Source of the DNA: an uncultured Elusimicrobia bacterium
GTDB taxonomy: Bacteria > Elusimicrobiota > Elusimicrobia > JACQPE01
Direction: 5' to 3'
Length of the DNA: 64,000 nt
Assembly: GCA_964357255.1 (NCBI GenBank)
Contig: CAYHKQ010000002.1
Span: 727-64,726 of the forward strand
Below, one piece after another: positions 1-46,637 of this stretch (position 1 is its first letter; the number at the start of each line of letters is the position of its first letter). The translations under genes and the position numbers were made by a program. Under the pieces are notes generated by a model. The model searched no databases and was not told where the DNA came from. It saw only the letters and a list, made by a program, of their open reading frames with translations.

Positions 1-2803
1 CAAGACCGAACGGTATCGCCTGGCGGAAGCCCTGGCAGGAGCTTCGGGGCATGATGATGATCAATGGAGACTTCCTTGGAGCGCCCATCACCTGCTTCTC
101 CTAACGGCCACGCCGCATATGGGAAAGGACTATCCCTACTACGCCATCTGGCGGCTTCTCGAGCCGGAGATTCTCACCACGCCGGAGGCCTTTCACGAGT
201 TTCCCGCCGACCAGCGTCGATCCCGTTTCATCCGGCGTACTAAGGAGGAGATGGTTTACCTGGATGGCCGGCCCATGTATCCCAAACGGGTTTCCGATAC
301 TTTGGGCTACGACTTGACTCAAGGTGATGTCAGTGAGCAAAAACTTTATGACGAAACCACAGACTATCTACGGTTTGTCTACAACAAGGCGAAGCTGTTG
401 AATCGCGAGGCCGCACGATTGGCCATGAGCGTTTTTCAGCGCCGATTGGCCAGCTCGACCTACTCCCTCCTGCGCTCGTTTGAGCGCCGGATCGAAAAGC
501 TGGACAAATTCGTCGCCGACGTGCAGGACGGCAAGCTAACCCCAGACCAGCTTGTCACGCTGCAGCAGCGAATTCACGAGGACCATGACGTTCTGGAATC
601 TAAGACCGCGGATGATGAAGCCGGGGATGAAGGCCGCGAAGAAAACGAAATTGCCGAAGAAAAACTCCTTCAAGGCGTGGTCGCAGCCTCGCTTGCTGAT
701 TTGCTGGCTGAAAGAGAGCATGTCCAGCGGCTTCTCGATTTAGCGAAAAGGGTCCAGGATTCCGGCCAGGAGTCAAAATTCGAGAAGTTACGCGAGGTCT
801 TAACTGCATCCAAATTCAACGGCGAGAAGTTCATCGTTTTTACCGAGCATCGCGATACGCTCGACTTTATCGTTAGTCGGTTGGAAGGCATGGGCTACAC
901 AGGCCAAGTTGCACGAATCCATGGTGGCATGAGCACTCAACCCGACTCTGCGGCGGGTCTAAGCGAGCGCGAACGGCAGGTTGAATTCTTCCGTCGTTCT
1001 TTATCCGAAGGCGGCGCGCGGTTCCTTATATGCACGGATGCCGCAGGCGAAGGAATAAACCTCCAGTTCTGCTGGATCATGATCAACTATGACGTTCCCT
1101 GGAACCCGGCCCGCTTGGAGCAGCGCATGGGACGCATCCACCGGTACCTCCAAAAGCACGATCCCGTTATCATTGTGAACCTAGTCGCTCCCTCTACCCG
1201 CGAGGGGAAGGTCCTCAAGGTTTTGCTCGACAAACTTGAGAAAATTCGCAAGGAGCTCCAATCGGATAAGGTTTATGACTGCATCGGCCGGGTTTTTGAA
1301 GGCGTCTCCATCAAGCGGTATATGGAGTTAGCGGTGACCGAGGACGCCCAATCCGTGGCCCGCGAGTTGGATGGCCGGTTGACTAAGGAGCAGGTTGAGG
1401 CTATTGCCGCGCGGGAGAAGACCCTGTATGGGACCGGCGGCGACGTGGCCCAAGAACTCCCTCGTCTGCGGACCAATCTGGAGCACGATGTCTATTTTCA
1501 CCTTCTGCCCGGGTATGTGCGGCAATATGTCCAACAGGCTGCGCCGTTGGCAGGACTTGAAGTTGAAGGCGACATGGGGGGCGTTTTTTCTTTCCGGCCG
1601 GTCCGGCCCGGCGCCATTGATCCGCTGCTGTCTGTGCTTCAAATCTATCCCGAGAACTCCTGGGAGCGCCTTTCTGTTGCGCGCCCTATAGATCGCAAGG
1701 ACACCATCTGGCTCCACCCGGGAGAACCCATATTTGAACGATTCCGCGCGATTGTAAGCGAGCGATTGGCGGACGAGGGCAAACGTGGCGCAATATTTGT
1801 GGACCCGACAACGGAGAAGCCCTATCTGTTCCACCTGGCGCTCCTCTCCATTGTCCGGAAAGCGGACTCGGAAATCCCGGACCTTGCCCAAGAAGAATTG
1901 CTTGACTGCCGCCTCGTTGGGGTCAAGCAGTACGAAGGCTCGGAAATTACTCTCTGCCAGGTTGAACATCTCCTACTCTTGAAGGGTGGGCAAGGACTCC
2001 CTGCTTCTGCGCAGCGTCTAGCCGCAACTGCGAGTGAACAAAAAGAGTTTGCCCACGCTTATCTAGCTGAGCGTATGGCCCGGGAATTGGCACTCGAACG
2101 CAGAACGCGACTGCTGGATAGCCTGCCTGAACGGGAAAATTTCATTCTGCGGGGATTCGATTACCAAGAGATGGACTTGACCGCTGCCCGGGCCAAACAT
2201 ACTGGGAAAGCGCGTACCGGCAATCGCAAGGCCATCGAATCCCTGGAGGAAGTTAAGCGCCAACAGAAACTCCTAACTGGCCGCCGTGAAAATGCTCTGG
2301 CCTTGCTACGCCGCGAGCCAGAACTAATCGCGCCTGGACAGGTTACATTCATTGCCCATGCCTTGGTCGTGCCGTCCAGCGATCCAGTGGACATTGAACA
2401 GCATGAGGCTAATGTCGAGTTGGCCGCCATGAATCTGGCCCAGGCTTTCGAGGAGACGGCCGGGGCTACGGTTCATGATGTACATACCCCGGAGCTCGCC
2501 CGTTTGGCCGGGCTCCCGGACAATCCCGGATTTGACCTTCTCTCCGTTAGGCCCGGCAACGATAAGCGCGCCATAGAAGTCAAAGGCCGATCTGGCGCCG
2601 GAGAAATCGAGGTTTCCGCCAACGAGTGGGCCAAAGCCTGCAACATGCGCCAGGATTATTGGCTCTACACTGTTTATGATTGCGCCACCCCAAGCCCGCG
2701 ACTCATCCGGGTACAGGACCCTTTCGGCAGTCTCCTCGTGAAAGCCAAAGGGAGCATGCTAATTTCGTCATCGGAAATCACGGCGGCAGCACAAGCACAA
2801 TGA
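1..2803 (+). CDS. SNF2-family helicase (C-terminal half; 5' end truncated by the window edge) with a C-terminal DUF3883-like domain
   Basis: The frame is open from nt 2 with no stop before the first ATG at 119. Residues encoded at 92-190 read LLLTATPHMGKDYPYYAIWRLLEP, which is SNF2 motif III plus the ELWsLLnFL box. The helicase-C motifs IV-VI follow (FIVFTEHRDTL, LICTDAAGEGINLQ, QRMGRIHRYLQ). The C-terminus (GRSGAGEIEVSANEWAKACNMRQDYWLYTVYDC) resembles DUF3883. Confidence 0.75.
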   Translation, partial: KTERYRLAEALAGASGHDDDQWRLPWSAHHLLLLTATPHMGKDYPYYAIWRLLEPEILTTPEAFHEFPADQRRSRFIRRTKEEMVYLDGRPMYPKRVSDTLGYDLTQGDVSEQKLYDETTDYLRFVYNKAKLLNREAARLAMSVFQRRLASSTYSLLRSFERRIEKLDKFVADVQDGKLTPDQLVTLQQRIHEDHDVLESKTADDEAGDEGREENEIAEEKLLQGVVAASLADLLAEREHVQRLLDLAKRVQDSGQESKFEKLREVLTASKFNGEKFIVFTEHRDTLDFIVSRLEGMGYTGQVARIHGGMSTQPDSAAGLSERERQVEFFRRSLSEGGARFLICTDAAGEGINLQFCWIMINYDVPWNPARLEQRMGRIHRYLQKHDPVIIVNLVAPSTREGKVLKVLLDKLEKIRKELQSDKVYDCIGRVFEGVSIKRYMELAVTEDAQSVARELDGRLTKEQVEAIAAREKTLYGTGGDVAQELPRLRTNLEHDVYFHLLPGYVRQYVQQAAPLAGLEVEGDMGGVFSFRPVRPGAIDPLLSVLQIYPENSWERLSVARPIDRKDTIWLHPGEPIFERFRAIVSERLADEGKRGAIFVDPTTEKPYLFHLALLSIVRKADSEIPDLAQEELLDCRLVGVKQYEGSEITLCQVEHLLLLKGGQGLPASAQRLAATASEQKEFAHAYLAERMARELALERRTRLLDSLPERENFILRGFDYQEMDLTAARAKHTGKARTGNRKAIESLEEVKRQQKLLTGRRENALALLRREPELIAPGQVTFIAHALVVPSSDPVDIEQHEANVELAAMNLAQAFEETAGATVHDVHTPELARLAGLPDNPGFDLLSVRPGNDKRAIEVKGRSGAGEIEVSANEWAKACNMRQDYWLYTVYDCATPSPRLIRVQDPFGSLLVKAKGSMLISSSEITAAAQAQ

Positions 2804-2825: not shown

Positions 2826-4019
2826 ATGACCGATAAAGAACTTGAAGCGCTCCTCGATGACATTGAATCGGACCGCGCGGAGCGTAAAGAATCACCATCG
2901 GACACGGGCAAAATCAGGCAAGCCATCTGCGCTTTCGCCAACGATATGCCAAATCATCGCCAGCCCGGCGTTTTATTCATCGGAGCCGACGATCTGGGAA
3001 ATCCCGTTGGACTCTCGGTAACAGAACAATTGATCCAAACGCTCTCGTCCATACGCTCGGATGGAAATATCCTGCCGCTTCCCGTCATGACCGTGCAAAA
3101 GCGAAAGCTTAAAGGGAAAGATTTGGCTGTGGTCGTGGTGCAGCCTTCAGACGCGCCGCCCGTTAAATTTAAGGGAACAATTTGGATTCGAGTTGGTTCG
3201 AGCCGGGCCATAGCGAGTCCCGATGAAGAGCGGCGACTGAGCGAGAAACGTCGGCACAAAGACCTTCCATTCGACGTTCGTCCAGTGGAAAGCGCGAAGA
3301 TGAATGTATTGGATGAGTTGGCCTTTCGCCAAATTTATCTTCCGTTGGCCGTTGCCGAAGATGTGCTGCGGCAGAACCAGCGCACGCTCGAAGACCAGAT
3401 GCTCGCATCAAAGTTCGCGCATACGGGTCCTCCCGTATGTCCGACGAACCTTGGAATTCTTTCCATCGGTAAAACCCCGACGGATTGGATCCCGTGCGCC
3501 TATATCCAGTTCGTGCGCTTTGCGGGCGGAACCCTTACAGATCCCATTAAGACGTCAAATGAGATCCGCGGTCCATTGCCGGAACTGCTTAGGAAGCTTG
3601 ACGAGATACTCAAGATCAACATTCAGGAAGCCCTGGATATCACCTCCGCAGACAAGGAGATCCGCAGGCCCGACTATCCGCTGGAGGCGCTCCAACAGCT
3701 TGCCCGCAATGCCGTTCTGCACCGCTCTTATGAGAATACAAACGCCCCCATACACCTGTATTGGTTTGAAGATCGCGTGGAAATTCAGAATCCTGGGGGG
3801 CCCTTCGGAGAAGTCAATCGAATAAACTTCGGCAAGACGGGAGTATACGATTATCGGAATCTCCATATTGCTACGGTCATGAAGGAATTGGGCTATGTTC
3901 AGCGATTTGGCATTGGGATTGAATTAGCGCGTAAGGCCTGCAGGGTCAATGGAAATCCGGATCCGGATTTCGCTGTAGAGGATACGTTCATAAGCGTAAC
4001 GTTGAGGAGGGCTTCATGA
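2826..4019 (+). CDS. AlbA_2/Schlafen-like putative DNA-binding protein with a C-terminal HATPase_c_4 (RecG-like C-terminal) domain
   Basis: The N-terminus is typical of AlbA_2 (KIRQAICAFANDMPNHRQPGVLFIGADDLGNPVGL). The C-terminus is RecG-C/HATPase_c_4-like (LARNAVLHRSYEN, RVEIQNPGGPFGEV). A GGAG ribosome-binding site precedes the start. The stop overlaps the next start (ATGA at 4016-4019). Confidence 0.6.
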   Translation: MTDKELEALLDDIESDRAERKESPSDTGKIRQAICAFANDMPNHRQPGVLFIGADDLGNPVGLSVTEQLIQTLSSIRSDGNILPLPVMTVQKRKLKGKDLAVVVVQPSDAPPVKFKGTIWIRVGSSRAIASPDEERRLSEKRRHKDLPFDVRPVESAKMNVLDELAFRQIYLPLAVAEDVLRQNQRTLEDQMLASKFAHTGPPVCPTNLGILSIGKTPTDWIPCAYIQFVRFAGGTLTDPIKTSNEIRGPLPELLRKLDEILKINIQEALDITSADKEIRRPDYPLEALQQLARNAVLHRSYENTNAPIHLYWFEDRVEIQNPGGPFGEVNRINFGKTGVYDYRNLHIATVMKELGYVQRFGIGIELARKACRVNGNPDPDFAVEDTFISVTLRRAS

Positions 4020-5008
4020 GCATTCCGGTTATCACATTCTTCAACAACAAGGGCGGCGTCGGCAAAACATCCATGATCTATCACCTCTCGCATATGTTCG
4101 CTGACAACGGCATGCGCGTGTTGTCGGCCGACCTTGATCCACAATGCAATTTGACGGCGGCGTTCATTGACGAAGACCGCTTGGAGGAAATATTCAAGGA
4201 CGGGTCGCACGACAAGACCATCTTAGGCGCCATTGGACCTATAAAAAGTGGAACGGGTGATATCGCCATGCCCTACGTCGAGCCAATAAATGACAATTTG
4301 AAAGTGATCATCGGGGATTTGGGTCTTTCCTCATTCGAAGATCATTTATCAGAATGCTGGCCGAAATGCCTTGCGGGTGACGAACGCTCCTTCCGGGTAA
4401 CATCCGCCTTCTGGCGCGTTTTGCAAATGGCCGGAAAGGACTGGGCGGATGTGGCGCTTATTGACGTTGGTCCCAATTTGGGCGCGACCAATCGTGCTGC
4501 CCTGATCGCATCCGATTACGTGGTGATCCCTCTCGGACCGGACATGTTTTCCCTGCAAGGATTAGACAATTTGGGTCCTGCCCTGCGAATCTGGAGGGCT
4601 GACTGGCGAGATAGACTTAGCCGCAAGCCCCAGATTAATTTTAATCTGCCTTCCGGCAAGATTGAACCGGTTGGCTATATGGTTTTAAGACACTCTATCA
4701 GGTTGGACCGTCCCGTTAAAGCCTTCGAGAAATGGATGGCGCGTATTCCGGAAACGTATGCCCGATCCGTACTCGATACTCCATCTGCGCGGACAGTGGC
4801 CTTGGATAATGACCCGCAATGCATCGCCAAGCTGCGCGACTACCGAAGCCTCATGCCGCTGGCCCAGGAAGCCAGAAAGCCGATGTTTCTTCTAAAGCCC
4901 GCTGATGGCGCATTGGGAGCGCACGCCAACGCCGTCCATGAGGTTTACAAAGAATTTTTTGCCGTTGCTAAGACTATCGCCAAGCGGACCAATCTCAAGA
5001 TGGAGTGA
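4016..5008 (+). CDS. ParA/MinD-family ATPase
   Basis: It carries a deviant Walker A (FFNNKGGVGKTSMIYHLS) and the ParA-type DLDPQCNLT box. It is translationally coupled to the upstream gene, and the downstream gene starts 4 nt after its stop. Confidence 0.7.
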   Translation: MSIPVITFFNNKGGVGKTSMIYHLSHMFADNGMRVLSADLDPQCNLTAAFIDEDRLEEIFKDGSHDKTILGAIGPIKSGTGDIAMPYVEPINDNLKVIIGDLGLSSFEDHLSECWPKCLAGDERSFRVTSAFWRVLQMAGKDWADVALIDVGPNLGATNRAALIASDYVVIPLGPDMFSLQGLDNLGPALRIWRADWRDRLSRKPQINFNLPSGKIEPVGYMVLRHSIRLDRPVKAFEKWMARIPETYARSVLDTPSARTVALDNDPQCIAKLRDYRSLMPLAQEARKPMFLLKPADGALGAHANAVHEVYKEFFAVAKTIAKRTNLKME

Positions 5009-5011
5009 ATC

Positions 5012-8000
5012 ATGTCCGATACATCACGTTTGATTGAACACGCTTTCCCCTTGAAGCAGACTTCTTTGGACTCGGTCCACGAGAAGAACGTTCGACATGG
5101 GCACATCTCTACCCTTCATATTTGGCCTGCGAGGCGACCGCTAGCAGCCTCACGGGCCGCCCTGATCGCCACGCTGTTGCCGGACCCGGGCACACCCGAG
5201 AAGCGAAAGGAGCTCTGCGAGAAGATCGGTGGTCAATTGGTCAAGAGCATCGAGAAGAAGAAGATGCCCAACGGGGAGGTCATTGAGCGCGAGAAGGAGA
5301 GTACCGAGGGCGGCATCCTCCATTGGGGTCGGGAGACCGAGAACAAAGCACTCTTGGAGTGGTTCCGAAAGGAAATCCGCAAGGCGTACGGAGGCCGAGC
5401 CCCCAAGGTCCTCGATCCTTTCGCCGGCGGCGGGGCGATCCCTCTCGAAGCGATGCGGCTGGGCTGCGAAGTCACGGCAGTGGACATCAACCCCGTGGCG
5501 TGGTTCATACTGAAGTGTACCCTGGAATATCCGCAGAAGCTCGCCGGCCAGACGCATCCATTACCGAAATTCATCCTTGACAACGACGAGTTCATGGAGG
5601 CGTTCTACAAGGCGCATCCGCAACTCGTTGGTCGGACGAGGTGGACCAAGAAACAGAAGGAGGACTTCTCTCAGGACCTTTTCATGCAAGAGAAGGAGGA
5701 CTCGGGCCGAGCCCCCAAGGCGGACTTAGCCTGGCATGTAAGGGCCTGGGGCCAGTGGGTGCTCGACCGGGCGCGGAAGGACTTGGCGAATTTTTATCCT
5801 ACCTATGCGGATTTCGAGCCAGTAGACAAGCTCAGCATGAAACCTTACGAGAAACAGCCCATGCGCTTGGTTCCTCTCAAAAAGGACGGGACACCGGGCA
5901 TCGAGTCGCTGAACAAGGACTTCAGCAAAGATTACTTGGCCGACAAACGCAATCCGCGATGGGTCGCCAAACCCACGGCAGCCTATTTTTGGGCGCGAGC
6001 GGTTAAGTGCAAGAATTGTCGGGCTGTGGTGCCTCTTCTCAAGACCCGTTGGCTCTGCAAAAAGGATCGGAAGCGCGTTCTCCTTGTGATGGAGCCAAAT
6101 GCGAAGAAGACTGGTGTAGTCTTTGGCATTGAGACGAACGTACCCGTGAAAGGCGGGAACGCTGCGCAGCGCCGCGAAGCCGACAAGCGGCTTGGTGCCG
6201 GCACGATGTCCCGCTCAGGTGCAAAGTGCCCTTGTTGCGGCGCCATCATGGAGATGGAAGCTCTCCGGCTTGAAGGCCAAGCTGGCCGGCTGTCTGACAT
6301 TAACACGGCGGTGCTCGTGGAGGGCCAGAATGGCAAGAAATATCGTCTTCCCACCAGCCATGAAACCAGCATGGTCGAAGAGGCGGCCAAGGCCCTTCAG
6401 TCGGTATTCAGTAATTTGCCTTTCGGCAGGCCGGACGACCCGATGCCTACCAAAGAGGCCCTGGGTTTTCGGGTCCCACTCTACGGCTTTGACAAATGGA
6501 GCAAACTATTTTCTGTCCGGCAGATGCTAAGCCTCGGTGTCCTCGTAAGCTGTCCACGAGAAATCGCAAGGACTCAGAAGCGCGCATATAACGATGAATG
6601 GCTGGCTGCCATCGTTTCCTACCTTGCGTTGGTCTGCGACAAGGTGGCCGACTACAACTCTTCGTTTTGCACGTGGCATAACTCCAAAGAACAGATGCGC
6701 CAAACTTTTGCGCGTTTTGCCATGCCCATGACATGGGACTGGGCAGAGCTATGCCCCGTCAACAATGTGGGGGGGTCGCTCCTGGCTCAGTTAGATTGGG
6801 TCGCCCGCTACGTCGATCATGCTCTTGTCGCCGGAGATGGGGCGCAACCCGTATCGGTGAGCCGACAATCGTCCACCTCTTTGGCCCTGGGTGGAGTGGA
6901 TGTAGTCGTGACCGACCCGCCGTACTATGATGCGATCACTTACTCAGACCTGATGGACTTCTTCTACGTCTGGTTGCGCAGGACCCTCAAGGGACTATCT
7001 CCGTCCTTCGATGAGGTGTTCGCGTTGCCACTCGCGCCAAAGTGGGATCATGAACGAAACGATGGCGAGCTGATCGACGATAAGAGCAGGCATGGCGGCG
7101 ACCGTCAGAAGTCTAAGGCGGTATACGAGGAAGGCATGGCCCGTGTGTTCCAAGCATGCCATGCCGCTCTGGTCCCTGACGGCAAACTGGTCGTCGTCTT
7201 CGCCCATAAACATCCAGATGCCTGGGAGACCCTTGTTTCGGCGATTATCCGTGCAGGCTTCACAGTGAACGGAAGCTGGCCGATCCAGACTGAGATGGGA
7301 ACCCGTATGCGGGCGTTGTCTTCGGCTGCCTTAGCATCCTCGGTCTGGCTTGTCTGCAAGAAGCGGCCCGCTTCGGCACGTCCGGGCTGGGACAACCAAG
7401 TTCTAGATGACATGCGCCGGAACATCCGCGAGAAACTGCGAGAGTTTTGGGATGCAGGGATTCGGGGCCCGGATTTCGTTTGGGCGGCAACCGGGCCAGC
7501 GCTGGAGGCCTACAGTAAGCATCCTGTCGTGAAGAAGGCTAACGAACCTGGGCCGATGTTGGTGGGTGAATTCCTGACGCATGTGCGCCGGATGGTTGTG
7601 GATTTTGTGGTTGGCCGGGTGCTTGCAGGGGAACAGGGAGGGGATGCAGAGCTTGCCGCTACGGACCGGCTGGATGAGCCAACGGCTTATTACCTGCTCC
7701 ACCGGCATGATTTTGGCATGGAAGAGGCTCCGGCGGGAGCCTGTATTCTCTACGCAATTTCGTGCGGTGTTTCGGATAAAGAGCTGTCCGACACCTGGGA
7801 CCTCATCGGATTCACGAAAGGCAAATTAGAAGAGGACGATGAAGAAGAGAAGGCTGACGTGGACGCAAAGACCGATTCGGATTCCGAGGAAGATTCCGGC
7901 AGTAAAGTAAAGCTCAAAACATGGGCGCAGCGTAAGGGCAAGTCTCTCGGCTACGAGGCTCCGGGTGGCAAGCCCATCCCGCTCATTGATCGCATCCATT

Positions 8001-8242
8001 GCCTAATGCACCTTTGGAAGGCTGGCGATCTGCCCAAGGTGGACGAATACCTGGATGACAACGGCCTGCGCCGACAGGAGCTATTTAAGCGGCTCCTACA
8101 GTCGCTCATCGAACTGTCCCCTCACGCAAGCGAGGAGCGTTCTTTGCTTGAATCTATCAGTAATCATGTCCAGGCAAAAGGAGCTGCGCCGGTTAAGGGG
8201 CCGGAACTGTTCGCCGCCGCAAGCCAGGAGGACGAGAGATGA
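5012..8242 (+). CDS. DUF1156-family DNA methyltransferase (N6A/N4C class; helicase- and DUF499-associated)
   Basis: The N-terminus is DUF1156-like (IEHAFPLKQTSLDSVHEKNVRHGHISTLHIWPARRP). It has the AdoMet motif LDPFAGGGAIPLEA and the catalytic motif IV VVVTDPPYYDAITY. There are Cys clusters (CKNCRAV, CPCCGA) and an acidic D/E/S-rich C-terminal linker. Confidence 0.75.
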   Translation: MSDTSRLIEHAFPLKQTSLDSVHEKNVRHGHISTLHIWPARRPLAASRAALIATLLPDPGTPEKRKELCEKIGGQLVKSIEKKKMPNGEVIEREKESTEGGILHWGRETENKALLEWFRKEIRKAYGGRAPKVLDPFAGGGAIPLEAMRLGCEVTAVDINPVAWFILKCTLEYPQKLAGQTHPLPKFILDNDEFMEAFYKAHPQLVGRTRWTKKQKEDFSQDLFMQEKEDSGRAPKADLAWHVRAWGQWVLDRARKDLANFYPTYADFEPVDKLSMKPYEKQPMRLVPLKKDGTPGIESLNKDFSKDYLADKRNPRWVAKPTAAYFWARAVKCKNCRAVVPLLKTRWLCKKDRKRVLLVMEPNAKKTGVVFGIETNVPVKGGNAAQRREADKRLGAGTMSRSGAKCPCCGAIMEMEALRLEGQAGRLSDINTAVLVEGQNGKKYRLPTSHETSMVEEAAKALQSVFSNLPFGRPDDPMPTKEALGFRVPLYGFDKWSKLFSVRQMLSLGVLVSCPREIARTQKRAYNDEWLAAIVSYLALVCDKVADYNSSFCTWHNSKEQMRQTFARFAMPMTWDWAELCPVNNVGGSLLAQLDWVARYVDHALVAGDGAQPVSVSRQSSTSLALGGVDVVVTDPPYYDAITYSDLMDFFYVWLRRTLKGLSPSFDEVFALPLAPKWDHERNDGELIDDKSRHGGDRQKSKAVYEEGMARVFQACHAALVPDGKLVVVFAHKHPDAWETLVSAIIRAGFTVNGSWPIQTEMGTRMRALSSAALASSVWLVCKKRPASARPGWDNQVLDDMRRNIREKLREFWDAGIRGPDFVWAATGPALEAYSKHPVVKKANEPGPMLVGEFLTHVRRMVVDFVVGRVLAGEQGGDAELAATDRLDEPTAYYLLHRHDFGMEEAPAGACILYAISCGVSDKELSDTWDLIGFTKGKLEEDDEEEKADVDAKTDSDSEEDSGSKVKLKTWAQRKGKSLGYEAPGGKPIPLIDRIHCLMHLWKAGDLPKVDEYLDDNGLRRQELFKRLLQSLIELSPHASEERSLLESISNHVQAKGAAPVKGPELFAAASQEDER

Positions 8243-8315
8243 ATTTTGGCCAGCTAATTTATAAACTTCTCTATGCTGCGCCGAGTATTCGATATAAAAG
8301 GGAATTTCCGGCGCC

Positions 8316-8714
8316 GTGACTGACGACTTTAGGGCCGTAGCGCCGCGCCATCTGAACGATGCGCATGTTTTATCTCAATCCAATCGTTGGGCTGCGGCTG
8401 CCTATATCGGGGGTTATGCGATTGAATGCGGTCTTAAGGCGTTTTTTCTAAAGTGGCAAGATGCGCGGGAATTTAGTCACGATATCCAGTGGTTGCACAA
8501 AGCAATAACGCTTCTTCATGTTGACTCAAGCTATGCAAAGTATGCTGTGCAATTGACCCCGCTTAGACCAGGCACGCTCTGCTGGAGCGAAAAACTGCGA
8601 TATAAAAAGGCCCATCCCGCATTTGATCCAAAATCTGTGAGCGATATCCTTGAAGACGCCTCGGCCATTGTTTGCTTAATGCAGGAGGCCATGTTGGACG
8701 GTAAGATTGCATGA
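8316..8714 (+). CDS. HEPN-domain protein
   Basis: The first helix is HEPN-like (AAAAYIGGYAIECGLKAFFLK). An Rx4H motif is present (EKLRYKKAHP). The gene sits in the lower-GC segment. Its stop overlaps the next start (ATGA at 8711-8714). Confidence 0.5.
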   Translation: MTDDFRAVAPRHLNDAHVLSQSNRWAAAAYIGGYAIECGLKAFFLKWQDAREFSHDIQWLHKAITLLHVDSSYAKYAVQLTPLRPGTLCWSEKLRYKKAHPAFDPKSVSDILEDASAIVCLMQEAMLDGKIA

Positions 8715-10042
8715 AATTGCATTTCTCTGAAACCCTGCTGGCCTCTGAAAAAGCTGCCTTGGCTTCGGGTATTGACAAATTCGCTGATGCCATCACCATT
8801 GTGCGTGACGTCTCCGGCAGGATTCGGTTGATTGTGGAAATAAAATTTGGAGTAGCCCTCGAAGGTCTTGCGGAATGCCAAAGGGCAAAGGATGAGCTGA
8901 AACTCAAGCTGGAAGATTATTTTGGAGGAATTGAATTTTTAACAATAAAAGAAACACGCAGTGATAAAATTATCCTGGATTTAATCGCTAAAACCCGCCA
9001 GAAACGAGAAGCTCCACCCGGTTCCCCCTGTTCCCAGTGGTATCTGCTAGAACGGCGTTTATCAAAAAATAGCTGGTTTGAAAAGCAAAATCCGCCTTGG
9101 CCCCTGCCAACATTGCAAAAACCTGCCCCCTTAATAGCATCCTTTTATTCATTTAAAGGCGGGGTTGGGCGAACCACGGCACTTGCCGCTGTAGCCATCA
9201 ATTTGTCGCGAGTCGGCAAACGCGTTGTGATTATTGATTTGGATCTTGAGGCCCCAGGGCTTGGCAGCTTGATGCAAGGAAGGACAACCTACGGGGCGCT
9301 CGATTATCTTTTTGAACATCCTGTTTTGGGAAGAGCGGAAACCCTGGATCCCTATTGTTCACTCCAAACAGAGCAAAAATTCATATTGACCGGCGAAGCT
9401 ATCCGCGTCATACCGGCAGGCGTCCTGAACGAGGAATATATTGAGAAACTTTCAAGGCTTAATTTTCTAACTCAACAACAAGATAATGGTGGTTCCGTGG
9501 CATCCGCGCTTTCCGATCTGTTGATTCAATGCCGCGACGCCTTTGGGGCGGAATACATTTTGCTCGACGCACGCGCAGGAATCCACGATATTGGGGGCCT
9601 AGCTTTGCATGGAATGTCCCATGTCAATATTCTATTTGGCAGAGCCAGTCCTCAATCGTACGAAGGATACTCCCTCATACTGCCAGAATTGGGCCGTTTG
9701 AATGTACAGCAAGGCGAGGATGCTCCCTTATGCCTGCCAGTTCACGCTTTCGCCCCCCCCGCAGGCGATCAAAACCGGGAAACGGAGATTGAGAATTTTC
9801 GTAGCACAATTTACGATCTTTTCGTTAATAACTACTATCCAAGTGAAGATGACATCCCGGATATTAATGATTCCGAGGCTGAACATTTTCCTTCGGTTTT
9901 GAGCTGGAATCCCTCGCTTGCCCGTTTTACGGATTTAACGGATGTCGTTGAATATTTAACGCAAGGGGAATACTCTGACTTAGCAGAGCGTCTCGCCGGC
10001 ATAAGAGGCGATTCTCTTTCCAGGAGGCAATCTTCCCCGTGA
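8711..10042 (+). CDS. ParA/MinD-like protein with a degenerate Walker A (KGGVGRT) and an about 150-aa N-terminal extension
   Basis: It has SFKGGVGRTTALAAVAINLS followed by VVIIDLDLEAPGL and ILLDARAGIHD (Walker B-like). The conserved P-loop Lys is replaced by Arg. The stop overlaps the GTG start of the next gene. Confidence 0.5.
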   Translation: MKLHFSETLLASEKAALASGIDKFADAITIVRDVSGRIRLIVEIKFGVALEGLAECQRAKDELKLKLEDYFGGIEFLTIKETRSDKIILDLIAKTRQKREAPPGSPCSQWYLLERRLSKNSWFEKQNPPWPLPTLQKPAPLIASFYSFKGGVGRTTALAAVAINLSRVGKRVVIIDLDLEAPGLGSLMQGRTTYGALDYLFEHPVLGRAETLDPYCSLQTEQKFILTGEAIRVIPAGVLNEEYIEKLSRLNFLTQQQDNGGSVASALSDLLIQCRDAFGAEYILLDARAGIHDIGGLALHGMSHVNILFGRASPQSYEGYSLILPELGRLNVQQGEDAPLCLPVHAFAPPAGDQNRETEIENFRSTIYDLFVNNYYPSEDDIPDINDSEAEHFPSVLSWNPSLARFTDLTDVVEYLTQGEYSDLAERLAGIRGDSLSRRQSSP

Positions 10043-11532
10043 GTTCTCTGAAATTAGAAAAACATAGCGCCTTGAATTCCGAGGAACGTCGCAACCTTCT
10101 AAATTCATTACTCGCGCTTTGTAAGCGAGATGCCGAAGATCCCAGCGAATCATCTCAGGATTTTCTTCGCCGTTTCTATAAGCACCCCCAATGCGATCAA
10201 GTCATGACGCCTGAGATTGTGCTCATTCTTGGCGTTCGGGGTGCCGGCAAAAGCGCCCTTTTTAAATATCTCCAGGCTGTGCGCGATTTTCCCGGTGGGA
10301 GCACCCTGATTTTACCCGCCTCGCAAAAAGATCTCTGGACACAAGGGCATGGTACTGGAGAAAATTTTCCACAGTCCGGCGTTCTTGGTCCGTTGGTCGC
10401 GCAAAAAAATACAAAGGATACGGCGGAGATGTTTTGGCTGGGACGATTGTTGGTAGCACTAATGAGGGTCCCGCGGATTGCTCCTATTCTTGAGAGTTCG
10501 CTAGGCCCGCTTTATTCGCAATTGAAAAATTTTGGAAACAGTCCCTCTAGCTGGCTTGACAATATTGCGTCAAAACGGGAAGAGGCGTATGGCGCGTTGG
10601 ATCAAATTGAGCGGAACCTCAAACAAGATAGCCTGCGGCTTTTTGTTGCCTATGATAATTTGGACGTCTTAACGCCGGATATCGAAGCCAGCAAGCGTTT
10701 GATCAGGCAGCTACTTCGCCAGTGGCTCGGTTTTTCCAATAGATACGCTTTTTTTCGCGGCAAGATTTTTTTAAGGGTTGATTTGTTTAAATCGAGCGAA
10801 CTTGATTTTCCTGACAGTTCCAAGCTTGCTGGAAAATCTATAAATCTAACCTGGGGCAAATCCCAGCTCTACGCCTTGCTTTTTAAGCGAATGGCTAATT
10901 TGTCCGGGGAGTGGGCCGAGTACCTAAAAAGCCTCTGCCCTGCCTTAATTTTAGAGAAAAAGGAAGCCCTTGGTTTTGTCCCCCAAAACGTAGGCGAACA
11001 AGAGCAAGCCGATATCATCAATGGTCTTGTTTCAGAAATGATGGGCAAAACAGCAAAAAAGGGCCGAACGGTTAAATGGATTCCTAACAATCTTCAAGAT
11101 GGCAATGGCGTGAGCGTTCCGCGCTCAATTTTTTCCCTGTTTGGAAACGCGGCGACGCACGAAACGACTGACCCAAAAGCAAAAAGGCGCCAACTATTGA
11201 CGCCGGATGATTTACGCTATGGTCTTGTCGAGGCCAGCAAGGCAAGGGTCAGCGAAATAGGAGAAGAAATGCCTTGGGTTGAAAGGGCTTGCAAAATACT
11301 CGAAGGGAAACGCGTTCCCCTTAAAAGGCACGAGTGTGAAAAATATTTTACCCAACTTCAGCTCAATGAAAATGATAACGAATGCCCCGCACACAACCCT
11401 TCAGAGTTGATTGATTGGCTGCACAATGTGGGTGTTTTGCGCTTGACAAAGGACGGCCGGATTCATATGCCGGATATTTACCGCTTGGCTTTTGGCGTCA
11501 AAAGAATAGGCGGGGTTCCGCTGCCAAAATAG
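10039..11532 (+). CDS. P-loop NTPase, family unassigned (Walker A GVRGAGKS)
   Basis: Motifs are ILGVRGAGKSALFKYL and a Walker B-like LFVAYDNLD. The GTG start at 10039 overlaps the upstream stop (GTGA). The region is lower-GC and A/T-rich. Confidence 0.45.
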   Translation: MSSLKLEKHSALNSEERRNLLNSLLALCKRDAEDPSESSQDFLRRFYKHPQCDQVMTPEIVLILGVRGAGKSALFKYLQAVRDFPGGSTLILPASQKDLWTQGHGTGENFPQSGVLGPLVAQKNTKDTAEMFWLGRLLVALMRVPRIAPILESSLGPLYSQLKNFGNSPSSWLDNIASKREEAYGALDQIERNLKQDSLRLFVAYDNLDVLTPDIEASKRLIRQLLRQWLGFSNRYAFFRGKIFLRVDLFKSSELDFPDSSKLAGKSINLTWGKSQLYALLFKRMANLSGEWAEYLKSLCPALILEKKEALGFVPQNVGEQEQADIINGLVSEMMGKTAKKGRTVKWIPNNLQDGNGVSVPRSIFSLFGNAATHETTDPKAKRRQLLTPDDLRYGLVEASKARVSEIGEEMPWVERACKILEGKRVPLKRHECEKYFTQLQLNENDNECPAHNPSELIDWLHNVGVLRLTKDGRIHMPDIYRLAFGVKRIGGVPLPK

Positions 11533-11572
11533 AGGGGAAAGACCATGACAAAAGAATTGGAAGGTAATTTCA

Positions 11573-14500
11573 ATGCCTAAACTGCCCTGGAAACCCTGGC
11601 ACGAGGTCGTAAAACTTCGCGAGGATTTACGTTCGGGTGAACTTTCGCTCAATATGTTCGCAGCGGACCTCTATGAGGTCCTGATGCAACGCGGGAAGAT
11701 GCCTGTTTATGAGAAGCCGGAGAATTTTTTCGCGCTGACATTCCCCACCTACAACCTGCGCCACCTCGTGCGCGACGTGGCGTTGCGCTTGGCGGGTAAA
11801 AACGACAAGGCCGTGCGCCAGTTGGAACTTACTTACGGCGGTGGCAAGACTCATACGCTCATCACTCTGCGCCACCTTGTCCATGAACCCGAAAAATTGC
11901 CAGATTTGCCGTCGGTGGCTGAATTCGTCCAGGAAATCGGCCAGAAGCCTCCCAAGTGCCGAGTCGCGGGCATCTGTTTTGACAAACTGGATGTAGAGAA
12001 GGGTATGGAAGTGCGCTCACCGGATGGCAAAGTCCGGACCTTGAAGCACCCTTGGAGCGTGCTGGCCTATCAAATAGCTGGCGATGCCGGCCTGAAGATT
12101 TTGCACGCTAACAACAAGGCCGAAGAACGCGAATCCGCGCCCGCTGAGAACCTGCTCACAGAGCTTCTGGAACTGCCGAATAAAGATGGATTGAGCACAC
12201 TTATCCTAATTGACGAAGTGCTGATGTATGCCAGAGAGAAGGTTGCCCAGGATAAGGAATGGAGGAGCAAGCTGGCGAACTTTTTTCATTATCTTACCGG
12301 GGCAGTGACTAAGGTAGACCGTTGTTGTCTGGTCGCCTCTCTCTTGGCCACCGACACGAGCAAAAGCGACTCTTTGGGACGCGAGATTCAAGCCGAGCTT
12401 TACAACATCTTTCAACGCCAACGCGAAGAAGCCGTCGAGCCGGTGGTGAAGGAAGACGTAGCTGAAGTCCTGCGCCGCAGATTTTTTGCGCCGGAGTCAT
12501 TGAAGGATCGAGATGCCTTCCGCCAGCATGTGATGGCTGCGCTCAAGGGTATCGGCGCGGTTGATGAACAAACTGCAAAGCAGGGTTCCGAGGCGGAGGA
12601 GCGTTTCCTTAAGAGTTACCCGTTCCATCCCGACCTGACAGAGGTTCTATATTCAAAGTGGACCCAGTTGCGCGGTTTTCAGCGCACCCGTGGCGTGTTG
12701 CGGACGTTCGCTTTGGCCTTGCGCGAGGCTGCGACTTGGGACGAGAATCCCCTGATCGGGCCTGCGATATTCCTTTCCGGGCCAGGGAAGGAGGGTCTTT
12801 CGGAGTCGTTGCGCGAATTGGTCACTGTCGCGGATACCGAGGAATGGGAGGGCAAAAAGCAGGCTTGGACAGGAATCCTGGACAATGAACTCTCTCAGGC
12901 CAGACGCATCCAGACCGAATCCGTCGCTCTGAGATTCCACGAGGTTGAGCAAGCGATTGTGGCGACCTTCCTGCATTCACAGCCCATTGGCCAAACAGCA
13001 AGAACCCGTGATCTTGCAGTGCTCCTCGGAGCCTCCCGCACGGATAAAATCGAGCTTGAGAAGGGTCTCTTGCGATGGGTGCAGACAAGCTACTGGCTTG
13101 ACGACCTATACACCGCTGTTTCCGAAGGGGCTTTGCCTGGCACTTGGCGGCTGGGCAACCGGCCGAACCTGACCCAGATGCATGCTGTCGTGGTCAAGAA
13201 TATGTCCGAGGATATGGTCCGGGCCCGCCTTTTCGATGAGGTCACGAAGGTAAAAACGCTTACTGCCAACGCCTCGGCGGCAGGCGTACGTGTCCACTCG
13301 CTTCCAGCAAGACCCAAAGATGTGGAAGACGAAGGCGCGTTTCATTATGCGGTTCTGGGGCCAAATGCGGCTTGCGAATCCGGTAAACCCAGTTCGGAGG
13401 CGGCACGATTTCTGGATGAGACGACAGGTCCAGACAAGCCCCGCGTCTATCGCAACTGCGTTCTGTTGCTTGCCCCGTCGAAGGATGGTTTAGAGCTCAC
13501 AATAGCCAGGATACGAGATTACCTCGCCTGGGAGGTGGTCCGCGAGGATATCAAAAAGCAGCAGAAGGACGGGAATGTCGATCCCGCCCGGGCCCAGACA
13601 TTGCAGATTAACATTGACAGAGCCAAGGCCCGCATCCCGGAAGCCATCAAGCAAGCCTACTGTATCGTAGTGACGGTTTCGGAAAAGGACGAGGTGCAGG
13701 CTTTTAAGATCACCATCTCGGAAGATACCCACTTCAATATTATCAAGACGGACCGGCGCTCTCGCGTCCAGGAGACGGCTGTCACAGCCGAGGCTCTGCT
13801 ACCGGAGGGCCCTTATAACCTCTGGCGTTCCGGCGAAAAGTCACGTCGCGTCAAGGATTTGGCCGGGGCTTTTGCCCAACTGCCACATCTGCCCAAGATG
13901 CTCAAAGCGAGCGCCATCCTCGAAACGCTCGTGGATGGGTGCGAGAAAGGAACATTTGTTTTACGACTTGTCCGCCCGGATGGAACGTCCCGGACGTGGT
14001 GGATGTCACGTCCGGACGATAACGCGCTCAATGATCCGGCGATGGAGTTGGTCCTTCCTAATACGGCAGAACTTGCAGATCTTTCTCCAGAGCTCTTGGT
14101 CCCCGGGAAGCTCCCTGACCTGTGGACTGAAAGTGAAATTATGGCCAAGACAGTCACCGAATATTTTGGCGGCTCGAAGGTCGTGCAAGTTGATCGTGGA
14201 GGCTACCGAGAGCCGATGCACATCCCAAAAGCCGGACAGACTATTGTGGATAAGGCCATCGGTGTGGCGGTAGAAAGCGGATCTATCTGGCTGCTTTCTG
14301 GCCCTTCCAGCATCCTTGGGGAACCTATGCCGGCAGGTATCCTCAACGCCAGCGCAAAGCTTTGCGCGCCTCCGGCCGTGATCGCCGCCGCGGAAATCCT
14401 GCCGGAGAATCTGCCGGCAGCCTGGAAGGACGTATCTGCTTCCGGACTTGCCATCTCAACTGCTTTGTCCGTGAAGGTTGGAAAGACATTGCCGTGGAAG

Positions 14501-14890
14501 ACTGTGAGGGGTGTAATTAGCAGCGCATTGCAGGCGCGATTCTTGGAGCTTACCCCTGATTCTAAGATTTGGCCCTGCGATCTGGCCGTCGCACAGTTCG
14601 CCAAATTCAAAGTCGCCATCCCAATCGCGGCCGGAGGATTTACCGTCGCCAGCGCAACAGGCAGCGGGTCAAAAGCGCTTATTGCAGCCGCCAATCTAGA
14701 GCCTTCGCAGGTTCAAGAGCTCGGCGATATCGTGCCAAAGCTACTGGCGATCAAGACCAAGGCAAACGTGCCCATACGATTCCACGTTCAGGTCGAGATG
14801 GGGGATGGTAAAACCCCGCCTCCACCCGAGACGGTGACTCAGGCGAACACCTTGCTCAAAAATGTGAATGCAGATCTGCAACTGCGATAA
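11573..14890 (+). CDS. DUF499-family ATPase (BrxC/PglY-like)
   Basis: The N-terminus is a DUF499 signature (PWHEVVKLREDLRSGELSLNMFAADLYEV ... TYNLRHLVRDV ... ELTYGGGKTHTLITL). The protein is 1105 aa. Confidence 0.75.
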   Translation: MPKLPWKPWHEVVKLREDLRSGELSLNMFAADLYEVLMQRGKMPVYEKPENFFALTFPTYNLRHLVRDVALRLAGKNDKAVRQLELTYGGGKTHTLITLRHLVHEPEKLPDLPSVAEFVQEIGQKPPKCRVAGICFDKLDVEKGMEVRSPDGKVRTLKHPWSVLAYQIAGDAGLKILHANNKAEERESAPAENLLTELLELPNKDGLSTLILIDEVLMYAREKVAQDKEWRSKLANFFHYLTGAVTKVDRCCLVASLLATDTSKSDSLGREIQAELYNIFQRQREEAVEPVVKEDVAEVLRRRFFAPESLKDRDAFRQHVMAALKGIGAVDEQTAKQGSEAEERFLKSYPFHPDLTEVLYSKWTQLRGFQRTRGVLRTFALALREAATWDENPLIGPAIFLSGPGKEGLSESLRELVTVADTEEWEGKKQAWTGILDNELSQARRIQTESVALRFHEVEQAIVATFLHSQPIGQTARTRDLAVLLGASRTDKIELEKGLLRWVQTSYWLDDLYTAVSEGALPGTWRLGNRPNLTQMHAVVVKNMSEDMVRARLFDEVTKVKTLTANASAAGVRVHSLPARPKDVEDEGAFHYAVLGPNAACESGKPSSEAARFLDETTGPDKPRVYRNCVLLLAPSKDGLELTIARIRDYLAWEVVREDIKKQQKDGNVDPARAQTLQINIDRAKARIPEAIKQAYCIVVTVSEKDEVQAFKITISEDTHFNIIKTDRRSRVQETAVTAEALLPEGPYNLWRSGEKSRRVKDLAGAFAQLPHLPKMLKASAILETLVDGCEKGTFVLRLVRPDGTSRTWWMSRPDDNALNDPAMELVLPNTAELADLSPELLVPGKLPDLWTESEIMAKTVTEYFGGSKVVQVDRGGYREPMHIPKAGQTIVDKAIGVAVESGSIWLLSGPSSILGEPMPAGILNASAKLCAPPAVIAAAEILPENLPAAWKDVSASGLAISTALSVKVGKTLPWKTVRGVISSALQARFLELTPDSKIWPCDLAVAQFAKFKVAIPIAAGGFTVASATGSGSKALIAAANLEPSQVQELGDIVPKLLAIKTKANVPIRFHVQVEMGDGKTPPPPETVTQANTLLKNVNADLQLR

Positions 14891-45060: not shown

Positions 45061-45672
45061 ATGGCGCAAGTCCAGTTAAACCCAATTCAAAATAAAATTT
45101 TGAAACTCATGGAGCGGAATATCGAGGAGCCGCTTTCTTACCGCGATCTGGCTAGAGAAGTTGATGTTGCGTCAACCAACACCATCGCTTATCACCTCCG
45201 CCTGCTTGAAAAAAAGGGATACCTTAAACGCGATCCGGTCAATCCGCATGGCTATGCTGTGCTAATCAAGCCGGAAACCGGCGTGGCTTACCTTAATCTT
45301 TACGGGTTAGCCCATTGCGGACCAAGGGGGTCATTGTTGGATGGCCATCCCATTGATAGGCTGCCTGTCGCGGCGCGCATGATTCCTTTTTCCGTAGCCG
45401 ATGCTTTTTTAGTTAAAGCCAAAGGGAATTCGATGGAACCGCGAATTTATGACGGGGATATTGTCGTGGCCAAAAAACAAAATATCGCCGAAACAGGCGA
45501 CCTTGTCGTTTGCGTAAATCAAGGCGAATCTCTGATCAAAAAAATCAAGCGAGAAAAGCATGGAATTATTCTTAGCTCGCTAAACACAAAATACGAACCC
45601 TTTTTGGCCTCCAAGGAAGATTTTCGAATCGAAGGAACAGTGAAGGCAATAATTTCCAAAACGGTGGCATAA
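45061..45672 (+). CDS. LexA-like repressor (winged-helix domain plus S24 peptidase domain)
   Basis: The N-terminal wHTH is LSYRDLAREVDVASTNTIAYHLRLLEKKGYL. The C-terminal S24 Ser/Lys dyad region is KAKGNSMEP...VVAKK. Confidence 0.7.
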   Translation: MAQVQLNPIQNKILKLMERNIEEPLSYRDLAREVDVASTNTIAYHLRLLEKKGYLKRDPVNPHGYAVLIKPETGVAYLNLYGLAHCGPRGSLLDGHPIDRLPVAARMIPFSVADAFLVKAKGNSMEPRIYDGDIVVAKKQNIAETGDLVVCVNQGESLIKKIKREKHGIILSSLNTKYEPFLASKEDFRIEGTVKAIISKTVA

Positions 45673-45674
45673 TA

Positions 45675-46631
45675 ATGGAAGATATGGCAGGAACGCTTTT
45701 CTCTAAAGTTAATCCAGTTGGGAAAATTATGCGGAATTATAATCCCGATGCCGCCGCAACGCTTTATCTTGGCGATCGCCTTGAATTGCTTAAACAAATT
45801 CCTTCCAAATCAGCCAGACTTATCGTAACGTCACCGCCTTACAATATCGGCAAGCAATACGAAAAAAGAACAAGCCTTGAGGATTACCTGCGGGGCCAAG
45901 AGGAAACCATAACGGCATGTTATGAAGTGCTTGCTGACGATGGTAGTTTATGCTGGCAGGTCGGTAACCATATCAGTCTTGACGGCGAAGTTTATCCGCT
46001 CGACATTTTGATTTACCCCATCTGCAAAAAATTAGGCCTTAAACTCCGCAATCGTATCGTCTGGACCTTTGAGCATGGCTTGCACTGCACCAGGCGGTTT
46101 TCCGGCCGCCACGAAACGATCTTGTGGTTTGCGAAATCAGATCAGCACATTTTTAATCTGGATCCGGTTAGAATTCCACAAAAATATCCAGGTAAAAAAT
46201 CGTTCAAGGGTCCTGATAAAGGAAAATTTACGTGCAACCCCCTTGGGAAAAACCCCGGAGACGTTTGGGTAATTCCAAACGTAAAAAATAACCATATCGA
46301 AAAAACCATTCATCCTTGCCAATTCCCAATAGAACTCATTGAGCGTTTGGTGCTAAGTATGACCAGTCGGGGCGACTTGGTGATTGATCCATATATGGGT
46401 GTGGGCAGCGCCCTTTGTGCGGCTGTCCGGCATGGCCGGCGTGGAGCGGGTGCTGATATTAATAAGGACTACCTGGATGTTGCCAGGCAGAGGGTTACAT
46501 TAGCGGTTCAGGGTTTGCTAAAAACTCGACCAATGGGGAAACCTGTTTATACCCCTAACGGCAATTGCAAGTTGGCCAAGCCGCCTAAAGAGTTTGAGTT
46601 GCTCCGCAAGGAAGCCTTGCTGATTTCCTAA
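45675..46631 (+). CDS. DNA methyltransferase, N4-cytosine or N6-adenine (beta class)
   Basis: It has the catalytic TSPPY and the AdoMet-binding region DPYMGVGSA. It starts 3 nt after the LexA-like gene. Confidence 0.8.
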   Translation: MEDMAGTLFSKVNPVGKIMRNYNPDAAATLYLGDRLELLKQIPSKSARLIVTSPPYNIGKQYEKRTSLEDYLRGQEETITACYEVLADDGSLCWQVGNHISLDGEVYPLDILIYPICKKLGLKLRNRIVWTFEHGLHCTRRFSGRHETILWFAKSDQHIFNLDPVRIPQKYPGKKSFKGPDKGKFTCNPLGKNPGDVWVIPNVKNNHIEKTIHPCQFPIELIERLVLSMTSRGDLVIDPYMGVGSALCAAVRHGRRGAGADINKDYLDVARQRVTLAVQGLLKTRPMGKPVYTPNGNCKLAKPPKEFELLRKEALLIS

Positions 46632-46637
46632 TCCCGT

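Follow-up and report, generated by a model that had tools for sequence, protein, structure and literature searches.

Three overlapping genes of low GC content lie between the methyltransferase and the DUF499 ATPase of a defence operon in the 64,000-nucleotide (nt) stretch of contig CAYHKQ010000002.1 from an uncultured Elusimicrobia bacterium that was analysed here (the window). This raises the question whether the three genes belong to that operon or entered it from elsewhere, and what they may do in it. The host system is Hma, alias the Type-1 BREX-related DUF499 system (nomenclature PMC12839542). According to our analysis, the three genes, here called M28A, M28B and M28C, match a candidate system already catalogued in the PADLOC database, PDC-M28, and they were very probably inserted by horizontal transfer as a mobile cassette. 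We further posit, and regard as moderately probable, that the locus is best read as a self-contained mobile PDC-M28 module in the hmaB-hmaC spacer which acts through a sensor, a switch and a HEPN protein by an abortive-infection mechanism. The features on which this reading is built are as follows; L001 is the contig that carries the nearest relative of the trio.

1-2803, forward strand: HmaA, SNF2 helicase with NOV_C nuclease (PADLOC HmaA, 3.7e-89; Pfam Helicase_C and NOV_C)
5012-8242, forward strand: HmaB, DUF1156 N6-adenine methyltransferase (Pfam DUF1156; PADLOC HmaB, 3.7e-120), left border of the cargo slot
8255-11534, forward strand: whole transferred unit, comprising a 61-nt leader and the three overlapping genes, in a single blastn alignment to L001
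8255-8315, forward strand: A/T-rich leader, aligning to L001 at about the identity of the coding sequence, with similarity lost upstream of about 8255
8316-8714, forward strand: M28A, open reading frame of 132 amino acids (aa) with GTG start; HEPN-fold protein, presumed RNase effector
8711-10042, forward strand: M28B, open reading frame of 443 aa with ATG start; N-terminal alpha/beta domain followed by a MinD/ParA/FleN-type NTPase with the motif KGGVGRT
10039-11532, forward strand: M28C, open reading frame of 497 aa with GTG start; ORC/Cdc6-STAND-type AAA+ ATPase, presumed sensor or switch
11573-14890, forward strand: HmaC, DUF499 ATPase (Pfam DUF499; PADLOC HmaC, 4.2e-76), right border of the cargo slot

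Judged by profile matches, the trio is PDC-M28: the genes are adjacent, co-directional and in the same A-B-C order, and each protein matches its model, M28A with 5.5e-16 (residues 1-129 on profile positions 1-136 of 138), M28B with 2.9e-62 (1-417 on 1-413 of 438) and M28C with 1.2e-76 (34-494 on 21-477 of 480). Two NCBIfam families, NF047398 and NF047389, are also matched; M28B falls into the 'KGGVGR-motif variant AAA ATPase' family (164.7 bits, cutoff 90) and M28C into NF047389, 'P-loop ATPase, Sll1717 family' (114.1 bits, cutoff 75). An earlier note on this DNA had not been able to place the combination in any named system, which these matches correct. Its domain calls (HEPN, degenerate ParA and P-loop NTPase) hold by family and motif matches, and both its three open reading frames and its placement of them between the DUF1156 methyltransferase and the DUF499 ATPase were right. 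The 4-nt overlaps are exactly those it gave, ATGA at 8711-8714 between M28A and M28B and GTGA at 10039-10042 between M28B and M28C. None of the cassette genes matches any of the Hma triad models (SNF2-nuclease helicase, DUF1156 methyltransferase, DUF499 ATPase).

The base composition of the cassette (8316-11532) differs from that of its flanks. Its GC content is 0.478, with 0.452 in the lowest 500-nt windows, compared with 0.573 for HmaB and 0.558 for HmaC. The contrast described in the earlier note is thus real and the composition is non-uniform, but its value of about 45% was slightly low (47.8%), and its 58-60% for the neighbours fits only the local flank peaks of 0.59-0.60. At third codon positions (GC3) the cassette genes reach 0.49, 0.45 and 0.48 as opposed to 0.67 for HmaB and 0.63 for HmaC. 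Because the contrast is concentrated at these positions, it indicates foreign origin rather than an effect of amino-acid content. Windows of the same size that are equally GC-poor make up 4.8% of the 64 kb (mean 0.529, standard deviation 0.025), and they fall on two places, the cassette and another patch of horizontal origin at about 44-48 kb.

A copy of the cassette that is closely related at the DNA level was found outside Hma. Positions 8255-11534 of the window align to positions 2105-5387 of L001 in one blastn alignment of 3,290 nt with 84.9% identity, and the trio proteins of the two copies are 78-84% identical. L001 is a metagenomic contig with 46% GC and no Hma genes, on which the trio lies between parA/parB and an integrase. 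The homology reaches from 13 nt past the stop codon of HmaB to 2 nt past that of M28C, and since its left edge lies so close to HmaB, the conserved 61-nt leader belongs to the transferred unit. This leader travels with the cassette and may carry weak promoter or ribosome-binding signals, although a consensus scan did not find a sigma-70 promoter in it. A scan of the two cassette junctions found no terminator at either of them. No direct or inverted repeats were found at the cassette ends, and a transposon or integron-like insertion was rejected on these grounds. The 38-nt spacer that leads from the cassette to hmaC (11535-11572) has no match in L001, and only its last 7 nt match the Hma relatives described below. 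A short ATG-initiated open reading frame of 11 codons (11546-11581) starts within this spacer and overlaps the hmaC start codon.

The opposite perspective, from the host operon, is provided by the three Hma relatives that were compared (L088, L089 and L090), whose HmaC proteins are 78-83% identical to that of the window and whose flanking genes show 78-87% protein identity. The trio is missing from all of them. In total, 4,177 relatives of HmaC were counted at E<=1e-30. In L089 (HmaC 79% identical) the slot is empty and HmaB and HmaC are separated by a gap of 72 nt, which is the homologue with abutting methyltransferase and DUF499 genes that the earlier note had proposed to look for. In L088 (HmaB 87% identical) the slot is occupied by a YhcG/DUF1016 nuclease, and in L090 by an AAA_15/21 ATPase together with a 227-aa protein. 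Nucleotide homology to these relatives picks up again 7 nt upstream of the HmaC start codon, at 11566, and hmaC keeps its ribosome-binding region directly upstream. The HmaB-HmaC spacer is a variable cargo slot that holds differing defence genes in related operons.

These observations decide against the view that the trio is ancestral to this Hma lineage and owes its low GC content to amino-acid composition or relaxed selection. It is true that the genes are co-directional and tightly packed among the hma genes and that no recognisable promoter or terminator of their own was found. However, the compositional difference is concentrated in GC3, the slot is empty in L089 and filled with other cargo in L088 and L090, a copy with 85% identical DNA exists outside Hma, and the published definition of Hma comprises three genes (PMC12839542; bioRxiv 10.1101/2024.01.29.577857). 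We consider the ancestral view refuted. The earlier note had likewise read the cassette as a secondary insertion, and the L001 copy, the GC3 values, the empty L089 slot and the alternative cargo support it; neither uniform GC content nor a trio in every homologue of the triad, which it had named as contrary outcomes, was found. Its statement that the two flanking genes are normally adjacent applies to L089, whereas embedded genes have been reported in 62.7% of 1,485 Hma systems, forming 376 distinct cassettes (Payne et al., bioRxiv 10.1101/2024.01.29.577857). Defence cassettes nested between hma genes are thus common and already published, and this particular cassette is already catalogued.

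Beyond the window, an exhaustive profile search retrieved 579 M28C clusters (50% identity) at E<=1e-30, where a word-indexed search had given 5 matches. A scan of one genome per species with a five-sequence M28C alignment yielded 136 loci from many phyla, of which 80 were analysed. Only three neighbour families recur among 85 loci (80 of them from the genome scan), namely M28C in 85, M28B in 73 and M28A in at least 55. When only loci with sufficient upstream sequence are counted, M28B is present in 71/75 (95%) and M28A adjoins M28B in 65/75 (87%). The A-B-C order is conserved, and the commonest junction is a 4-nt overlap. In 85% of loci the trio is poorer in GC than its own flanks, the median difference being 4.5 points. 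Together with L001, Hormoscilla and Calothrix, the window copy falls into a deep clade with few members, and its M28C shares only 24-28% identity with most of the family.

Most copies of the trio are chromosomal, and 24 plasmids carry it, including a Calothrix plasmid and a conjugative IncF plasmid of Enterobacter, on which it adjoins recombinases and GNAT/DUF1778 toxin-antitoxin (TA) pairs. For Enterobacter bugandensis, the copy on pSurvcare220 has the locus tags FBF69_RS23925-23935. No match to the trio was obtained among 50,697 phage records. On a Paenibacillus chromosome the trio stands alone amid metabolic genes. The earlier note had suggested searching for the cassette on its own elsewhere, and L001, the Paenibacillus chromosome and the Calothrix and Enterobacter plasmids all provide such cases. 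In Methylococcales the trio lies between housekeeping genes, with mnmA (tRNA methyltransferase) upstream in L017 and purB (adenylosuccinate lyase) downstream in L010, one side having been read per locus; L028 is probably the same. This suggests a chromosomal hotspot that is unrelated to defence islands.

A DUF499 system within 10 kb is absent at about 90% of the trio loci. In 7/80 loci (L031, L049, L053, L063, L069, L071 and L073) the trio is embedded in operons that combine DUF499, DUF3780 and DUF1156 proteins with a PLD-helicase, in the order DUF499 - DUF3780 - (Macro-domain protein) - DUF1156 - [A-B-C] - PLD-SNF2 helicase. An assignment of these seven loci to Hma (Type-1) was rejected, as the helicase has an N-terminal PLD domain and DUF3780 is present, which makes them Type-2. 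Their junctions with the trio are only a few nucleotides long, too short for a promoter. The embedded Type-2 copies are scattered over the M28C tree with non-embedded sisters and are 24-27% identical to the window copy, so that capture has happened repeatedly; on this phylogenetic evidence, the trio has been embedded in DUF499-centred systems at least twice independently. In L049 only M28B and M28C follow directly after the methyltransferase (7816-10541) and M28A is not detectable, which indicates that the HEPN gene can be lost or replaced. A 609-aa Macro-domain protein lies between DUF3780 and the DUF1156 methyltransferase in L031 (3010-4839) and in three other trio-hosting Type-2 loci. Further neighbours of the trio are DISARM DrmMI, BREX PglX, type IIG enzymes and MADS mad3.

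What, then, might the three proteins do? M28A matches the Pfam HEPN family PF05168 with 26.1 bits (gathering cutoff 22; residues 9-123 on profile positions 8-115 of 117), and among its relatives 9/31 match HEPN_AbiV and 3/31 match HEPN. On these matches, the assignment of a HEPN fold is reasonable. In 31 M28A homologues R11, H12, G33, E37, C38, K41, R95, Y96 and G129 are invariant, and across 31-59 homologues the pairs and triplets R11-H12, E37-C38-x2-K41 and R95-Y96 are essentially so, R95-Y96 being present in 58/59. The candidate active-site motif of the window protein is R95-x4-H100 (RYKKAH), and Rx4H is also found in L001. The string REFSH (residues 51-55) had been considered as the HEPN motif and was rejected, as it is unconserved and the conserved arginine is R95.

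M28B has a core of MinD/ParA (SIMIBI) fold with the deviant Walker A motif KGGVGRT. In the window protein the P-loop lysine is replaced by Arg154 and the signature Lys149 is kept, and KGGVGR[ST] is present in 73/73 homologues. Lacking the P-loop lysine, M28B fails the ParA/MinD signature KGGxGK[ST], and NCBIfam files the protein in a separate family. The core is preceded by an N-terminal alpha/beta domain of about 115 aa in which D33, G36 and R39 are conserved. A family scan found no ParB-family match in the cassette, and the only conserved neighbours of M28B are M28A and M28C. Natural fusions of M28B and M28C also exist (P0027 and P0055, about 930 aa), from which we argue that the two proteins act as a complex. 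In the P0055 fusion the P-loop reads KGGVGCST, which is further than KGGVGR from a catalytic P-loop.

Both Walker motifs of M28C are intact, the A motif being canonical (GVRGAGKS) and the B motif of the form hhhhDxLD. Its fold is that of an ORC/Cdc6-STAND-type AAA+ ATPase, with the small archaeal ATPases 2qen and 2fna as best structural matches; a sequence-profile search of the PDB gave nothing meaningful for M28C, which was placed by fold comparison only. The N-terminal half of a 1,328-aa protein, P0040, resembles M28C; behind it come a calcineurin-like phosphoesterase (Metallophos) domain and a NACHT NTPase, and the protein may represent an alternative effector/sensor arrangement on the same ATPase. 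The fold search revealed no nuclease-like domain in M28C and no family match suggested one in M28B, whose N-terminal domain was not searched separately for its fold, so that M28A is left as the only candidate effector. Nor did the family scan, within the same limit, find a match to the MNT nucleotidyltransferase family in M28B or M28C.

The repeated embedding of the trio in defence operons, its full-length PDC-M28 matches, its other defence-type neighbours, its low GC content and its occurrence on plasmids were counted in favour of a defence context. We cautiously regard the trio as serving in defence or in a TA-like manner through the HEPN protein as its effector, a view that we rate as a little better than even. 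The earlier note had guessed at a HEPN toxin under the control of two ATPases, of abortive-infection or TA-like character, and this stays the leading hypothesis. In the mechanism we posit, M28C, as an ORC/Cdc6-STAND-type AAA+ protein, would sense infection, and M28B, in complex with it, would serve as a MinD/ParA-type nucleotide-dependent dimerisation switch. The exchange of lysine for arginine in the P-loop of M28B probably keeps ATP binding and leaves hydrolysis poor. The active site of HEPN RNases is normally formed on dimerisation. M28B and M28C might restrain M28A, or assemble it, and M28A, once released or activated, would cleave RNA and abort the infection. The module could also act as a TA-like addiction unit that stabilises itself wherever it has landed.

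Several observations weigh against this reading. The canonical Rx4-6H motif of HEPN proteins varies across the M28A family: RYAH (Rx2H) is the commonest form and Rx4H is confined to the subclade of the window; about half of the family has its histidine at +3 (RYAH), and in some other members it is found at neither position. As the motif is not conserved across the family, RNase activity is uncertain, and a comparison of the M28A family profile with PDB sequences matched no solved HEPN structure. No function could be assigned to the N-terminal domain of M28B, and the division of the sensor and regulator roles between M28B and M28C is a guess. Many copies of the trio lie among housekeeping genes without defence neighbours, and no signature of transposition or integration was found that would account for the movement of the cassette. 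Finally, the PDC systems are explicitly untested candidates (bioRxiv 10.1101/2024.01.29.577857), and literature searches gave no relevant mention of PDC-M28, KGGVGR ATPases or the Sll1717 family.

Comparison with described systems places the trio among known themes. The PDC set was obtained by 'guilt-by-embedding' from genes inside BREX, DISARM and type I restriction-modification (R-M) loci (bioRxiv 10.1101/2024.01.29.577857); in the same study, seven embedded systems were validated and 145 untested PDC candidates were put into PADLOC (Payne et al., bioRxiv 10.1101/2024.01.29.577857). Embedding in methylation-based defence operons is a trait that the trio shares with the PDC set at large. The hosts used to define that set were BREX, DISARM and type I R-M systems, whereas the window trio resides in Hma. 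Cassettes embedded in Hma, such as Septu and HEC-01 to HEC-09, present the same situation of an independent defence module nested between hma genes, as with Septu between HmaA and HmaB in Halomonas (PMC11232893). None of the tested HECs has the composition of the trio; HEC-08 consists of one DUF3644-type HEPN protein that bears zinc ribbons and needs the histidine of Rx4-6H for defence (bioRxiv 10.1101/2024.01.29.577857). The commonest Hma cassettes pair ABC ATPases with nucleases, whereas the trio pairs a ParA-like with an ORC/STAND-like ATPase.

Similar gene arrangements are found in HEPN-MNT (HepT/MntA) TA modules and in the HEPN(MAE_18760) plus ParA/Soj dyad; for the latter, a TA-like function was predicted in which the ATPase takes the antitoxin role (Anantharaman et al. 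2013, PMC3710099). In both of them a small HEPN protein is encoded beside a nucleotide-binding partner, probably with translational coupling, as in the trio. In contrast to HEPN-MNT, the family scan found no MNT nucleotidyltransferase in the trio, which also has the HEPN gene first and includes an obligatory third gene for an AAA+ ATPase. In comparison with the dyad, M28A matches PF05168 and AbiV-type models only, the presence of the MAE_18760 model in the library being unconfirmed, and M28B has the KGGVGR variant and an extra N-terminal domain. As to the STAND/ORC-like ATPases that serve as defence sensors (Avs, RADAR RdrA and BrxC), M28C differs in being short (497 aa) and in lacking a repeat-type sensor domain and a fused effector, and family and PDB profile scans did not find sequence-level membership of M28C in any of these families.

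Two further explanations have to be weighed against a self-contained defence module. Standalone HEPN and Schlafen genes nested in BREX/BR loci have been proposed as 'backup effectors' in a 2026 survey of BREX (PMC12839542), and the trio might similarly be a functionally integrated accessory of DUF499-centred systems that reads the Hma/BR state, for example its inhibition by phage anti-restriction, and triggers HEPN suicide. This would agree with the position of the trio directly after the DUF1156 methyltransferase in two host architectures, namely Type-1/Hma in the window and Type-2 with the PLD-helicase in the seven loci. It would also agree with its repeated capture, seen in the scattering of embedded copies over the M28C tree, with the lack of room for a promoter in the Type-2 junctions and, in the window, with the absence of a terminator or consensus promoter that would separate the cassette from the hma genes. 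However, a three-gene operon offers only two internal slots, so that the repeated position after the methyltransferase is weak evidence. The roughly 90% of loci without a DUF499 system nearby, the copies alone in Paenibacillus, at the Methylococcales site and on plasmids, the nearest relative of the window trio outside Hma (L001, 85% nt identity) and the unrelated cargo accepted by the same slot all speak for autonomy, and we consider an accessory role unlikely. A bolder version combines it with the mechanism above: PDC-M28 would be an abortive-infection system in which an ATP-locked KGGVGR dimerisation switch couples an ORC/STAND-like sensor to the assembly of a HEPN RNase, and its repeated capture after the DUF1156 methyltransferase in Type-1 and Type-2 systems would reflect functional coupling, so that it fires as a second line of defence when the restriction-like system is disabled. 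We offer this as a speculation that is rather doubtful at present.

The trio could also be a maintenance module of plasmids or other mobile elements, working by partition or post-segregational addiction, that has no role in phage defence and is a mere hitch-hiker in Hma. The MinD/ParA fold of M28B, the position of the L001 trio after parA-parB and before an integrase, the 24 plasmids with the Enterobacter IncF copy near recombinases and GNAT/DUF1778 TA pairs, and the predicted TA character of a HEPN toxin with an ATPase antitoxin (PMC3710099) can all be read this way. Yet 73/73 copies have arginine in place of the P-loop lysine on which ParA-type ATP hydrolysis depends, the conserved unit has no ParB-like or centromere-binding partner, and L001 has a canonical ParA/ParB alongside the trio. 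Moreover, most copies are chromosomal, embedding in methylation-based defence operons is repeated and is the very criterion of PDC cataloguing, and addiction and abortive infection are not mutually exclusive. We therefore judge pure maintenance to be improbable and retain the self-contained PDC-M28 module as the preferred reading.

As a natural case of cassette exchange in Hma the locus is clean, offering an exactly delimited insert, a relative with an empty site, two alternative cargoes and a donor-like copy. It also gives the candidate PDC-M28 a concrete anatomy, which comprises the invariant KGGVGR motif, the M28B-M28C fusions, an ORC/STAND-type third component and a HEPN motif that varies among clades. 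If the trio defends against phage, a ParA/MinD-type switch would be added to the known controls of HEPN effectors. The copy on the conjugative IncF plasmid of Enterobacter should be easy to test in E. coli-like hosts.

The remainder of the window contains further cargo in and around the Hma operon:

2826-4019, HmaA-HmaB slot: Schlafen/AlbA_2 protein with HATPase_c_4
4016-5008, HmaA-HmaB slot: ParA-like ATPase of 330 aa with a canonical KGGVGKT P-loop
15425-16312, reverse strand, just downstream of HmaC: YhcG/DUF1016 PD-(D/E)XK nuclease (PADLOC PDC-S02, 1.5e-128)

HmaA itself continues beyond the start of the window rather than being truncated, its frame being open from base 2 and its LLLTATP motif present. 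The slot between HmaA and HmaB (2826-5008) holds a second embedded pair of genes, which overlap by ATGA and both have about 52.5% GC. Among the Hma relatives the Schlafen gene is kept, at 54% identity for L088 and 27% for L090, and its ParA-like neighbour is not. The pair resembles Schlafen-fused HEPN families described as 'in operon with ParA/Soj' (PMC3710099). In L088, the protein that fills the HmaB-HmaC slot (9223-10008) has the same Pfam domains (DUF1016_N and YhcG_C) as the nuclease that lies downstream of HmaC here, and the same kind of cargo thus occupies different positions in related Hma operons. The genes beyond the Hma locus include ordinary metabolic genes, which indicates that the locus is chromosomal. 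In the second patch of low GC content (45061-47348, about 0.46) lie genes for a LexA-like S24 repressor, a BglII-like endonuclease and an N6/N4 DNA methyltransferase, which suggests a type II R-M module that was acquired on its own and has a LexA-type regulator.

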